Below, in pieces: positions 1,785-62,868 of a DNA stretch of 64,000 bases; position 1 is the stretch's first letter; each line of letters starts with the position of its first letter. Origin of the DNA: Eledone cirrhosa (Eukaryota). Where the stretch lies: positions 337,590,001 to 337,654,000 of the forward strand of contig OZ024740.1 in NCBI GenBank assembly GCA_964016885.1, written 5' to 3'. The notes under the pieces are model-generated. The model was not told the origin of the DNA and ran no database searches. It saw nothing but the letters and a program-made list of their open reading frames with translations. The position numbers and the translations under genes were made by a program.

Positions 1785-1830
1785 AACAATCAACATGTTT
1801 CTGGATCATTACTCTTCATCAGGACTGTTT
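1785..1830 (-). ncRNA. Type I hammerhead motif, degenerate stem II
   Basis: Minus strand aacagtc-CTGATGA-agagtaatgatcca-GAAA-catg-TT-gattgtt; stem I pairs, stem III palindromic. Confidence 0.5.
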
Positions 1831-2689
1831 ACTTCTCCGCCAATCTGTTGAATGGTTGAAAATTATAGTATTTTCTGAAGTATACGTAGGCATACTTACA
1901 TTTATGTGTCAGCTGTGCTAGAGCGAGAAATATAATTCTAATTTTATTTTTAATTTTCAGCAAGGTCAGCCGAAACTCACTCAGTATGCAAATGAGGCTT
2001 ATCAGACGATGTATTACCTGCTATCTTTAATATACAGCTAAACTGACACCTCGTTTGTGCTTTACCATTCATGCAGTTAACACCATATATATGTACACAT
2101 CACTCTTTATTTATTTTCCATTAACCTGTACGAATCTACATTTATTGCCCTTTTATCACTATAATTTATCATCACAGTCATTATACATAGTTCATGCACA
2201 AATATAGATAGAAAGGGAGGGGAGGAGGAGGAGAAACATTTTGTTGTCAGCACAGAACAATTTTCAAAACGTCTTCCCTGCTTTTCTCACTTTAACTACT
2301 TTAGTTTCATCACTACAACCATCTTAAGTACTAATTAGATTTCTGAAAGGTAATTGTGCAGAAGCTTGTCATGAATTATAACTCACAACACTTATTGGGT
2401 TTCACGATTCAATACTAAAAAATAAAATCCCCCCCCTCCCCCCCAAAAATACCCAACCAAAGAACAAAAATAAAACATTAAAAATGTTGGAACATTTGTT
2501 GTAATTTTTGTCAGATTCTGCAGTGAGAATCAAGTCATCAGAGCATATAAAATTCTCCAACACACCTGATCTTGAATTCTTGTGGTTATTGCTGCAAGGA
2601 CTGTAAGTAAACGTCCTCATGCAAACCCAAATTGGATCTTATTTAAATTAATCCTACTTTGTACTAACTTGATTATGACTCTTCTAGTT

Positions 2690-2910
2690 TTAACCCTTTA
2701 GCATTTACACTACTCTATATATACTATTGTATTTTCGCAGTGAATGCTTTATCTCACATAATATTTCACATAATATCGAATCTATAAGATTTTGATATTA
2801 TTTCTTTTGAGAACAATACCTCAACATCAGTATGAGTGGCCAATTATGGCCAGTTTGAACAGAAAGAAGTGAAAGAATTCTGGCCAGATACAGCCGGTTT
2901 AAATGCTAAA
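2690..2910. mobile_element. TTAA MITE (piggyBac-like), older copy of 51652-51872
   Basis: Starts ttaaccctttagcattta, ends tttaaatgctaaa; internal sequence matches the 51.7 kb copy. Confidence 0.65.
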
Positions 2911-3926
2911 TCAGAATGCATGTGTACAATAATGTATGTATAATAATTATTTATATAAAGGGTAAAAAAACAACATAAGAAATGGTGGATTGGCAAAGTT
3001 GTTAGGGTGCCAGATTAAATACTTTTGTATCTGTTTTGGCTCACTGCATTCTGAGTTCAAATCCTGCTGAGATCAAGCTTACCTTCCATCATTCTAGAGT
3101 TATATATATGTATATATATATATATATATACATATATATATATACATATATATACGCTGTTTTGCTATTACATAGAAATGATTTTTCTCCAATTTTTTCT
3201 CCGATTTCTCCGAAAAATCTATAAGTTTAGAAAAATTCCTATATTTTAAACATAAAAAGTCCTTTATTGTATGTATATATATGTATGTGTATGTATATAT
3301 ATATGTGTATGTATACATATATGTGTGCGTATGTATATATATGAATATATTCTTTTAATAATATATAGTTTTAATAATATATAGATTTTAATAATATATA
3401 GATCTCAATTTTAATGTATAGATCTCAATAATTTAATTGATAATTTAATTGATAAACTAAACATTTAATCATATTTAAACACTGGTTAAAATTCTCCAGT
3501 TATTATTATTTATTTATTTTCTATTCGCGCTTACTTACTTTTCCTAACTCATCCAATAAATATTTATTTTTTCACTTCATCTTAAAAGTTAGGCTAATAC
3601 AACAACCTACCACTTAGGGCTTTCTCTTTCTCTTTTCTTTTTTTCTTCTCTTTCTCTTTCTCTTTCTCTTTCTCTTGTTTTCTTATTTTCCTCTTAGAGT
3701 TTGCTCTTTTTTTTTCTCTTTTTTCTCTTTTTTCTCTTTTTTCTCTTTCTTTTCTTTCCCTTTTTCCATACCCCAACGGATTATTTTAAATCTACTGTGA
3801 TTTAAACATATCCGACACTAATTTGCATAATAGACTAAATAAATTAAATAACTCCACTATCCGGGAGCTTCCAACAGAAATGGTTGCATTCTTTAAGGAT
3901 ATGTCAATATTTATTTATAAAAGTGA

Positions 3927-60118: not shown

Positions 60119-62608
60119 CTAGCTAACAGGTTTAAAGTAGAAGAAAGAGCTTAATATTCGGTGGGGGCAAGAGGAAAAAATTTCAGACTTTCTATTTAGT
60201 AGAGGGCATTTAGCAAATATAATAGAGTGGGATTCAGCAAGGCACAGGTTACATACTCTACTATGAGGAGTATATGGATGGGATTTAGCAACCTGCCGCC
60301 AAGTAAGTGTGTAACGTGTTCGTGCATTTTTTAAATTATGGACGTACGCTGCCAAGGAGGTGGAGTTCCTCAGTTTATTATGTCTAAAAGTGCATTGATG
60401 AGAGTTAAACCTGGTCTTAAAGGGGGTGGAGGTTGATCCTATATAGGTCTTAGTGGACGCCGTAGTTACCACATCACACGCATAAACTATGTTTCTAACA
60501 AGGCAGAAACCATTCAGGGGGCAGCCTGAAGCCCTTCTACAGTTACAACCTCTGGTGATGCTATTCTCAGAATGATCACCACCAGTGTTTCTGCCCACTC
60601 TGTCCACTACCATGTTTTCCCCTAGGCTTAGGTTGTCCAGGCCTTCCTTTATTTTCTTATTATTAGTGATGGCCAGATGAGAGGCCAGATTTTGGGTTGT
60701 AGAATACGAAAGTTTAACAACATTCTTATTGAGGATAGAGTGGTACCTATTACCAGGAGGGAAGTTCCGTTCCAGCACAGAGAAGAAGGCCCTAGGAATA
60801 TTTATAGCCACTTCAGAATTAAAAGGGGGGTTGAAGTATGTATTCAATCTTCTTCTATTCTTTTTATTCTTACTATTTCCATCAGTATTATTAGCATTAT
60901 TATTTCTACGGTTCCTATGCTCGCCTAGTCCATGCGGGGAGCTGCGAGGCCTACCATTGCTATTACTTAGACTAATGGTGCCCTGCTGGTTCATTCCACC
61001 GGCATCTAGAAACCTCCCGTTCACGACACCTCTATTGTTATTACTTAGACTAATGGTGCCCTGCTGTTTCATTCCACCGGCATTTAGAACCCTCCCATTC
61101 GCGACACCTCGATTACCAATGGACATATTATGTGTTATAACAACACTGGTAGAGCTACTATTAGGACCATTATTTCCCTGGGTGTAATACAATTTGTCCC
61201 TAAAGCCGGATCTAGCTAAGGCGTCGTTATAGTAATCAGCCTGCGAGTCAAACGCCTCCTCACTATGTGAGAGTGAACTTATTCTGTTAGATACGCCCTT
61301 CAGTATACCGCTGATGACAGACCTAGGGTGGTTGGAGTTGGTATTCACGTAAGTCAGCAATTCATTGGGCTTATGGTACGGTGTGTACGTATAGTTATCC
61401 AAGTCCAGTGTAACATCTAGGAAGTTCACAGTTCTATCATTTACATCCATAGTAATGGATAGGTTAAATGTTTTAAAAAAGCTATGCAGCTTTTTCCTAA
61501 TGCGCACTATATTATACTTACTAGTATCTATGGAGAGTAGGGCGTCATCCCGGTACAACCCGCCCCTAAGGAAAGGGAAGTTACTATGCAGTTCATTGAG
61601 GAGGTATAGTCCAACTAAGTCGGTGACTTGAGCAGAGTCACTCGACCCCATAGTAATGTCAAAATTATCAGGTGTGTTTTTTCTCGTCCATAGATTATCC
61701 TCAAACATGATAATGGTTTTACGTGCAGCGAGAACAATATCTATCTGTGGCCTAGTAATTGCCCCCCTCTGCATGGCTAGGATGAGGGCCTTATTGAGGA
61801 TAATAGGAGATATAGATGTATAATAAGCATCAATATCAAATTGGATGAATTTTAGTGAGTCACGACCACAATCCGTAGAGAACCACGTAATGACCTCACT
61901 AGTGTTACCCCAAAGCTCAAGGAAAGTTTTTTCTCTAACCAGGGGAATAACGCTATCCAAGATTCCCTTACTAATAATCCCCAGGTCAGACTTGGAGGGG
62001 CAGATAAGCCTAACTGAGGGTCTGCTAATAAAATCTTCCTTGTGGTCCTTGAGGGTGAATCTAGGCTGCTTGGGGTAATAAGGCTGAGTGTGTTTATCCA
62101 GACCTAATTTTACCACTATGTTATACCCCTCCAGATTAATATTATCTAAATTACTCTGCGTTGTTTTTTTGTAGTTCCTATGTAGTTCATTATAAATGAA
62201 GCCTCGATAGGTTTTATAATCCATACTATATAAGTTTTTAGTTTTGTCAGAGGGGACCAGAATGGATTTATTATCCCTAAAGTCCCTAACGATTGAACTT
62301 AGTTTACTCTGAAATTTATTGGTACATCTAGATTTTTTATATCTAATATTCCTAACAAGGGATAATAGCTCACTTTCGAAGTTATCCAACAGGCTATTAT
62401 GCGGGGGGCTCCTATAGGTCTTAAATCCATAATTATTAAAACTACGCCTCTCCTCAGGGCTATCATACTTCTTATCAAAGTGGAACGCACGCCACCGAAC
62501 ACGTTTTACGAATGAGTTTATGCTAGTTATCAATGATTTCTCATATGAGATTTTAGGGGGGGTGGGAATATTCTTCAAGGAAATGGGTAAGTATGTCTTT
62601 GTTAACAT
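60119..62608 (-). CDS. PLE polyprotein: RT + C-terminal GIY-YIG endonuclease (first ATG at 62608)
   Basis: SDKT, LKDHK, RLICP, FDIDAYY, FDITMGS, GLYRDD, VNFLDVTLDL, YHKPN; CNCR..CPLNG.C, NIVY...YIGST...FKTRFNSH, CNLCLAE, LLNRKSE. Confidence 0.93.
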   Translation of the reverse strand: MLTKTYLPISLKNIPTPPKISYEKSLITSINSFVKRVRWRAFHFDKKYDSPEERRSFNNYGFKTYRSPPHNSLLDNFESELLSLVRNIRYKKSRCTNKFQSKLSSIVRDFRDNKSILVPSDKTKNLYSMDYKTYRGFIYNELHRNYKKTTQSNLDNINLEGYNIVVKLGLDKHTQPYYPKQPRFTLKDHKEDFISRPSVRLICPSKSDLGIISKGILDSVIPLVREKTFLELWGNTSEVITWFSTDCGRDSLKFIQFDIDAYYTSISPIILNKALILAMQRGAITRPQIDIVLAARKTIIMFEDNLWTRKNTPDNFDITMGSSDSAQVTDLVGLYLLNELHSNFPFLRGGLYRDDALLSIDTSKYNIVRIRKKLHSFFKTFNLSITMDVNDRTVNFLDVTLDLDNYTYTPYHKPNELLTYVNTNSNHPRSVISGILKGVSNRISSLSHSEEAFDSQADYYNDALARSGFRDKLYYTQGNNGPNSSSTSVVITHNMSIGNRGVANGRVLNAGGMKQQGTISLSNNNRGVVNGRFLDAGGMNQQGTISLSNSNGRPRSSPHGLGEHRNRRNNNANNTDGNSKNKKNRRRLNTYFNPPFNSEVAINIPRAFFSVLERNFPPGNRYHSILNKNVVKLSYSTTQNLASHLAITNNKKIKEGLDNLSLGENMVVDRVGRNTGGDHSENSITRGCNCRRASGCPLNGFCLVRNIVYACDVVTTASTKTYIGSTSTPFKTRFNSHQCTFRHNKLRNSTSLAAYVHNLKNARTRYTLTWRQVAKSHPYTPHSRVCNLCLAESHSIIFAKCPLLNRKSEIFSSCPHRILSSFFYFKPVS

Positions 62609-62810
62609 ACTGCCTGATAATATACAAGGACACAAATCCGCGTATATCAAAGTTTAAGCTCAACCAGTGGGAGCCGTATAGTATACTAGGGAAAGGATCA
62701 GGGGTGTATAACACTCCACTTATCCAGCAGGCAGTATAAGGTTAGCTCAATGTCAGAGGACAGAGCCGTAATATAATAAATAACAAAGAACGCTTATAGC
62801 ATATGCATAT

Positions 62811-62868
62811 CTTTACTTGCTAACATTGTTTCATCCGCACTATAAGTGGGACTCATCAGAGCATAAAG
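62811..62868 (-). ncRNA. Hammerhead ribozyme in 5' pLTR
   Basis: Identical to 57813-57870. Confidence 0.85.

Follow-up and report, generated by a model that had tools for sequence, protein, structure and literature searches.

What accounts for the many hammerhead ribozyme motifs in one stretch of the Eledone cirrhosa genome, and are they at work where they lie? The 64,000 nucleotides concerned (assembly GCA_964016885.1, contig OZ024740.1, positions 337,590,001 to 337,654,000 of the forward strand), which as a whole are referred to here as the window, form a stretch of the 3.0-Gb assembly rich in microsatellites and in pieces of LINEs (long interspersed nuclear elements); a first-pass annotation made from the letters alone had counted about 17 such motifs. 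The explanation favoured here, with a probability of roughly 0.85, is that these are type-I hammerheads marking the 3' ends both of Penelope-like retrotransposons and of tandem retrozymes without an open reading frame (ORF), likely arising from repeated insertion into (TA)n, and that they are mostly inactive in place. Hammerheads on Penelope-like elements and retrozymes are already known, and the census itself was expected. What was not found in print is the rule that inverted insertions pair one short end with one long end, its counterpart in a retrozyme (type E) and a 78-bp satellite of type F; the literature searched, mostly open-access and excepting the supplements of PMC7229834 and of a bioRxiv preprint (10.64898/2026.07.22.740005), held neither a cephalopod hammerhead census nor a short-plus-long footprint for retrozymes.

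Hammerhead motifs in the window

The census used a type-I descriptor (CUGANGA, stem II, GAAA, stem III, UH and a stem I of at least 4 bp, tolerating a 10.1/11.1 mismatch or one extra base), which was composed after the motifs had been viewed. Eleven of the 12 motifs reported as intact satisfied it (C3 at 3944+, 12495-, 16026-, 26221-, 34218-, 34735+, 41200-, 41237+, 42886-, 57861- and 62859-), against a mean of 0.017-0.05 matches per shuffled window (three block sizes, 60 dinucleotide shuffles for each), and the control scan suggested at first pass thus came out in favour of the motifs. The twelfth, at 1785, has an intact core but failed on stem II, where it bears two substitutions relative to its family (type A), whose family form passes. 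Of seven sites reported as degenerate, those at 12556, 15272, 24609, 40078 and 10742 are supported as decayed or variant hammerheads; those at 10170 and 51618 remain unproven. The total is 17 motifs of about 11 types in about 13 insertions, with 17 of the 19 coordinates originally listed left standing. Chance matches in AT-rich DNA could account for the two unproven sites; as a general explanation chance is practically negligible, given 0.02-0.05 matches per shuffled window, one match altogether in ten shuffles of the 600-kb genomic background described below, and the recurrence of the motifs in repeat families, and for the intact set it is refuted.

GUU is common as the cleavage triplet, as had been stated (8 of 12 intact motifs; GUA and AUA in two each). 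The palindromic stem III that had been ascribed to most motifs applies to the seven of the 11 passing motifs in which helix III is fully self-complementary, but not to 57813 and 62811 (ACAAUGU, centre unpaired) or to 41167 and 41231, which have an ordinary helix of 4 bp with an 8-nt loop. The placing of many motifs in (TA)n was correct in that element ends run into such tracts, but (TA)n makes up 1.8% of the window against 4.0% of the background.

Relatives of all eight intact types are numerous and spread over contigs (511-4,372 candidates at first look, 40 of which were scored per type), and in every one of these families the 3' ends are discrete, the 5' ends vary and the junctions carry (TA)n. 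A scan of the window against Rfam gave no match at the gathering score; type E (34181 and 34728) alone resembled a hammerhead model, HH9 (E 3e-6, 38.6 bits, below the cut-off of 52), and the other E-value matches were rejected as hairpin and microsatellite look-alikes of microRNA models. When eight motifs were folded as single strands, E alone reached a strong z-score.

Coding Penelope-like elements

Five types are the 3' ends of coding Penelope-like elements, four of them Hydra-type (B, C, D and G) and one Neptune-like (N). The description of the types as mutually unrelated was therefore wrong for the four Hydra-type ends among the approximately 11 types. In the lines below, RT is reverse transcriptase, UTR untranslated region and pLTR pseudo-long terminal repeat.

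57773..63577, minus strand: Hydra-type element of type G, its 4,998-bp unit repeated in partial tandem
63577-62771 (pLTR), ORF, 2.3-kb 3' UTR, 58609-57773 (pLTR), minus: layout of G
62818-62863 and 57820-57865, minus: intact hammerhead motifs of G
60119..62608, minus: intact 829-aa ORF of G, RT (YRDD) and C-terminal GIY-YIG
from 63573 (63573..64000 in the window), plus: second arm of G, inverted and 5'-truncated, extending to 68402 (L028)
3936..4000, plus: type B hammerhead, 3' end of a Hydra-type element; remnant of the 3' UTR from ~3100, short end 4045
12390..12765, both strands: type C inverted insertion, 3' end of a Hydra-type element
12446-12500, minus: short arm of C, intact motif
12556-12610, plus: long arm of C, dead motif (GAAA to AAAA), 99-nt tail
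15959..16140, both strands: inverted insertion of type D; intact motif 15993-16030 (minus) in the short arm, long arm starting at about the cleavage site
42754..43080, minus: type D 3' end of a Hydra-type element, intact motif 42853-42890
12870..15590, plus: type N, broken Neptune-like element; RT, CX4CxxC linker and GIY-YIG, with frameshifts and stops
15276-15320, plus: dead hammerhead of N (GAAA to AAAA), intact in the family

The G protein, when aligned, shows RWR, DKT, CNCRRASGC (CxCX5C), CNLC (CxxC) and CPH (CxH) and has no CCHH, and on this basis, that is from motifs without a tree, it would belong to the Hydra clade as listed in section 11 of Craig et al. (2021, PMC8557442), where a C-terminal GIY-YIG, an RWK-like motif, DKT, CxCX5C and the absence of CCHH are common to the clade and to G. 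G also has the pLTR in partial tandem, the inverted insertion, the tail, the (TA)n target and the hammerhead in the pLTR; according to the part of that paper dealing with the clade, its published members likewise have hammerheads, target (TA)n, insert in partial tandem or inverted form and bear a tail at one end, and a Hydra family is listed there for Octopus bimaculoides. However, the G unit of 5.0 kb with its 2.3-kb 3' UTR exceeds the size generally given there (<3 kb), tails measure 65-100 nt here against 30-40, and the tail described as "often at one end" is found at one end in 52 of 52 cases here. The inverted second arm of G differs from the first at 2 of 2,416 bases and carries the long tail at its 68402 end. 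Homologues of the ORF number 1,193, with Argonauta hians represented among the best 120; a 78-bp duplication within the ORF (60956-61114) lies inside an insert of ~70 aa that most homologues lack.

Types B, C and D were called Hydra-like through tblastn similarity to G rather than by checking motifs one by one. The motif lies downstream of the ORF end in 6/12 loci of B (on the same strand) and 10/12 of C, and D has an ORF upstream on the same strand in 6/14; loci of these types without a linked ORF are truncated copies or have the motif beyond the 1.5-kb flank. Type N is joined to a Penelope-like ORF in 5/12 loci, and its CX4CxxC, which fits the CX2-5CxxC linker before a C-terminal GIY-YIG, marks it as putatively Neptune-like, again without a tree.

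Retrozymes without a reading frame

33957..35068, both strands: type E, 466-nt retrozyme in inverted partial tandems; motifs 34181-34225 (minus) and 34728-34772 (plus), both intact
1785..1829, minus: type A hammerhead, core intact, stem II decayed
1513-1990: type A repeat, old, ORF-less, ~390 nt, in partial tandem with an inverted 5' piece

Type E is repeated in tandem with a period of 466 and up to 3.6 units, has one type-I hammerhead per monomer and a GC content of 35%, and its monomer holds no reading frame of more than 60 aa; the predicted circle folds at -154.5 kcal/mol (z -10.3, 60 shuffles), and the arms are mostly 97.5-100% identical. Being tandem, ORF-less, below 50% GC and self-paired as a predicted circle, with one hammerhead per monomer, it is a non-LTR retrozyme, sharing with those of other animals, in the portions of the retrozyme papers that describe them (PMC7229834; bioRxiv 10.64898/2026.07.22.740005), ORF-less tandem monomers, a single type-I hammerhead, low GC and a stable predicted circle. 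The insertion in the window ends at monomer positions 231 and 302, each into (TA)n. No RNA run was listed as containing E. Contigs of four sequencing runs of unrecorded kind cover E and are uninformative on expression; one of 496 nt (run X4, record 9, its kind likewise not on record) spans the monomer once round (466 + 30), which is what either a circle or a tandem array should yield.

Type A has 39 further matches at 82-88% identity. A Penelope ORF was found in none of its 12 loci, four of which contain partial tandems and none a full tandem array, and it is likely a retrozyme, an older repeat of E-like design. The motif ATGCAAAT, which we take to be an octamer element, lies ~90-100 nt upstream of the core in E (34640 region) and in 10/12 A loci, and type B (3820) carries it in reverse. 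Newt satellite 2 is described, in the part of PMC2220036 that concerns its transcription, as driven by a promoter of the small nuclear RNA type.

The ecosystem of autonomous and non-autonomous members that had been proposed is present inasmuch as both Penelope-like elements and retrozymes occur; however, most motifs belong to 5'-truncated 3' ends of coding elements and are no non-autonomous members in their own right.

Insertion ends and the mechanism they suggest

41140..41363, both strands: type F inverted insertion; motifs 41156-41206 (minus) and 41231-41281 (plus)
40078..40130, plus: C3U copy of an F-related subfamily, relative of 41167

Type F has a U-U at the base of stem II, a 4-bp helix III and a 66-nt tail, and it shares the end pattern of the Penelope-like types. 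Counted in nucleotides from the cleavage site, 3' ends are bimodal in F (15-22 or 88), B (46-53 or 136-140), C (44-63 or 153-160), D (35-38 or ~104) and G (51-53 or 140-145), and they mostly lead into (TA)n. All 52 inverted pairs of these five types, among 56 head-to-head pairs listed overall, combine one short and one long end. In type E, for which the query contained neither end, complete inverted insertions pair one end at 227-233 with one at 300-302 in 16/16 cases, a pair interrupted by other sequence (L272) being excluded; 15 are independent (two look like duplicates), and the chance of this for evenly drawn ends is ~3e-5. The 11 single E arms comprise six short and five long. Were the palindromes MITE-like DNA transposons (miniature inverted-repeat transposable elements) moving as units, near-identical copies would be at home here, and nine near-identical F palindromes of ~220 bp do occur on several contigs; that size was selected by the query itself, however, and with centres that vary, unequal arms, spans from 95 to 4,422 bp and many single arms the idea is very improbable.

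Most hammerhead pairs in the window stand head-to-head on opposite strands. Since close pairs are opposite-strand, there is no dimer in cis and they are likely fossils. For this reason, and because a transcript spanning such a palindrome would be inferred to fold into a long hairpin, most motifs in the window are likely inert where they lie. Type F has a helix III for which no dimer is needed.

We propose that a Penelope RT/GIY-YIG protein would bind a tandem or circular transcript and nick a (TA)n tract on each strand; two fixed internal sites 65-100 nt apart, one per target strand, would serve to start reverse transcription, and both cDNAs would halt early and join at their far ends to give a head-to-head palindrome. 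The position of the hammerhead immediately upstream of the start sites would explain its recurrence in both arms and its retention in nearly all remnants. Cleavage is predicted only for same-strand copies on one transcript (the G and E arrays) or for a stable helix III (F and the 24609 family), where it would release monomers from tandem RNA. There is precedent in the anole Poseidon element PAc (Frangieh et al., 2024, PMC11167929), whose protein, in the experiments reported there in vitro, cuts and extends both target strands and uses two internal RT start sites which bound the tail, at an AT-rich target as here.

Retrozyme E likely makes use of the same machinery. Tandem repeats lack an end of their own, and the two fixed ends of E are for this reason best read as a Penelope-type footprint. 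We consider it somewhat more probable than the contrary that an ORF-less retrozyme is inserted by a Hydra-type Penelope protein from two fixed internal sites, one per target strand, at every insertion. Movement by an RTE-like LINE, or spread by duplication at the DNA level, would suit the RTE-like ORFs common in the window, the two loci (L258 and L265) that resemble a DNA duplicate and the failure to find sequence homology between E and Penelope. This is nevertheless rather unlikely, as inverted E insertions terminate on either side in a 3' end, one at each of two fixed internal sites, in (TA)n, with the same pattern as the Hydra-type families, whereas twin priming by LINEs yields one 3' end only.

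Several points weigh against the reading of the motifs as Penelope-like and retrozyme ends moved in this way. The clade assignments rest on motifs and not on a tree, and a Pfam search of the G protein gave no match. Four of the 56 listed pairs are long-long; one is a mispairing with the inner pLTR of G, whose true outer ends are short and long, and the other three are of type N, with ends at 210 and 250-270, both above the threshold used. The C, D, G and F queries contained tail sequence, so that one arm was selected as long and the other was free. For most monomers the minimum-energy fold differs from the hammerhead fold, E has no sequence match to the sampled Penelope ends beyond architecture, and F, H and the 24609 family lack a coding partner among the loci fetched. 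In the same experiments in vitro PAc chose its start site irrespective of strand, whereas genomic pairs in the present data always have one of each, and hammerhead cleavage was dispensable; a necessary role of cleavage is further called into question by the frog dimers, eight of nine of which stayed uncleaved in the assays given in the preprint (bioRxiv 10.64898/2026.07.22.740005).

It has been proposed that Penelope-like elements gave rise to animal retrozymes and mobilise them; the portions of the papers making this case (PMC7229834; bioRxiv 10.64898/2026.07.22.740005) rely on co-occurrence and pLTR homology and do not describe an inverted short-plus-long footprint. The mobilising enzyme having so far been argued on those grounds, the footprint of E makes the question testable, and the short-plus-long rule restricts the ways in which the protein can employ its pair of start sites. 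If the proposal is true, the mobiliser of animal retrozymes gains a testable footprint and the Penelope tail follows a strict rule. As one window holds both a young E with mapped end sites and an intact young Penelope ORF, a priming assay in vitro is feasible.

Type F and its satellite

At C28:30,496,738 to ~30,873,620 (377 kb) there is an F-type satellite of 78-bp monomers with one hammerhead each, amounting to ~4,800 units if the array is continuous. Nineteen stretches (136 kb with flanks) gave 1,696 monomers, every internal one full; 617 are distinct, and the core is intact in 1,222/1,636 (75%). The left end consists of (TA)n and an inverted long arm, and the satellite therefore began at an insertion junction: its origin is type F, probably at an inversion junction. 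Selection was not seen in these monomers (variation of 0.033 at core positions against 0.037 in flanks), and as the core is no better conserved than its flanks amplification at the DNA level is likely. The satellite also contains higher-order repeats. The largest retrozyme array among the data consulted in the two retrozyme papers (PMC7229834; bioRxiv 10.64898/2026.07.22.740005) has 300 units and the axolotl total is 120,000; in the same portions axolotl HHR_Amex2 has the U-U at the base of stem II seen in F.

No coding partner was found in the longest F copies, in which upstream extension stops at a microsatellite without an ORF. One candidate, an apparent junction with a Hydra ORF in L031, was rejected; the element ends on its own in a microsatellite inside F, and 0/11 other loci have F downstream.

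A second hammerhead repeat, of period 422, stands in tandem at the right end of the satellite (L279:745-1589), is inserted within it (L026 near 4112, 6246 and 8730) and is present in the background (L132, L135); it has a helix I bulge and a CUAG helix III like type E. At L277:600-4200 an F microsatellite is interrupted by a tandem repeat, several hundred bases in size, which has inverted arms and carries CTGATGAG...GAAA as a motif pair; it is possibly another retrozyme.

Density in the genome

The background consisted of sixty 10-kb stretches at round coordinates on 19 contigs (600 kb, 0.02% of the genome) and contained 43 passing motifs. The 11 in the window compare with 4.6 expected, ~2.4 times background (bootstrap P 0.045, Poisson P 0.008), and the window is close to ordinary for this genome in hammerhead density. 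The motifs fall into 19 sequence clusters at 75% identity, 12 of them not present in the window. That working, dimer-cleaving ribozymes, belonging mostly to non-autonomous elements, are unusually concentrated in the window would accord with this excess, with palindromic helices in 7/11 and with the 97-100% identity of the E and G families; it is distinctly unlikely, however, as 5/7 window clusters recur in the background, close pairs are opposite-strand, several copies are core-mutated and five types (B, C, D, G and N) represent the ends of coding elements.

Extrapolation from the 600-kb sample gives ~215,000 motifs genome-wide (130,000-315,000), against 2,000-9,000 per genome in the counts consulted in Cervera and de la Pena (2014, PMC4209133), the descriptors being different. 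The estimate suggests that hammerheads make up a large unannotated share of this kind of genome and, if true, ~200,000 in one genome would exceed the counts in the papers cited. The main text of an octopus repeat annotation (PMC13282606), in the part consulted, has no mention of ribozyme, retrozyme or Hydra. Shared with the families described in the relevant part of PMC4209133 are the palindromic helix III, the extra base after A9, the U3-A8 variant, numerous families in each genome, copies that are mostly single and truncated, and opposite-strand pairs 100-700 bp apart. Short helices III in the background were fully self-complementary in 31/40 motifs, with covarying forms including UAUAUA and UGCGCA, the descriptor having required two pairs only. 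Variants such as U3-A8 are overlooked by the descriptor, and a relaxed scan for them was noisy (14 matches, seven from one tandem repeat, against 1-3 in shuffles).

Other motifs and neighbouring sequence

24608..24705, plus: U3-A8 variant hammerhead; 60-nt stem II, 5-bp helix III, GUC, stem I damaged
26190..26225, minus: minimal hammerhead of type H with ACGU as helix III and an additional A following A9; element 26095-26252
10742..10825, plus: decayed hammerhead with two changes in the core; by eye its stems measure 7, 4 and 7 bp; inverted insertion 10505 to ~11070
10170..10214, minus: possible decayed minimal hammerhead, unproven; GAAA to GACA, stem I absent, one equally decayed relative in 1.4 Mb
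51618..51650, plus: possible decayed H-like motif, unproven; interrupted by another repeat

The 24609 motif sits in an inverted insertion starting at ~24527. Its family has 47 listed ends, the whole core being kept in five (four of them U3-A8), with a compensatory pair change in helix III, and no coding partner was found in the loci fetched. A second U3-A8 family, with a palindromic CUACGUAG helix III, occurs at L150:2380 and 2975 (595 bp apart) and at L182:3104. Type H has an ORF in 0/12 loci. For the 10742 motif RNAfold favours a different fold inside stem I, and no relatives were found in 1.4 Mb.

A 298-bp palindrome surrounds a long (TA)n at 11015-11312, with no hammerhead core seen in it. 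The motifs AAGATGGC and GCGCATGCGC, presumably resembling YY1 and NRF1 sites, lie upstream of the N, D and H hammerheads (15165-15240, 42930-42945; H loci L104-L113), and several H copies start near AAGATGGC. LINE fragments occupy 4366-5721, 28363-29762 and 54139-57114; 30157-31722; and 18741-19175, 32195-32650 and 41544-41921, and their features include an RT with a PHD finger, an RT with C2H2 fingers and restriction-like endonuclease ends recognised by eye.

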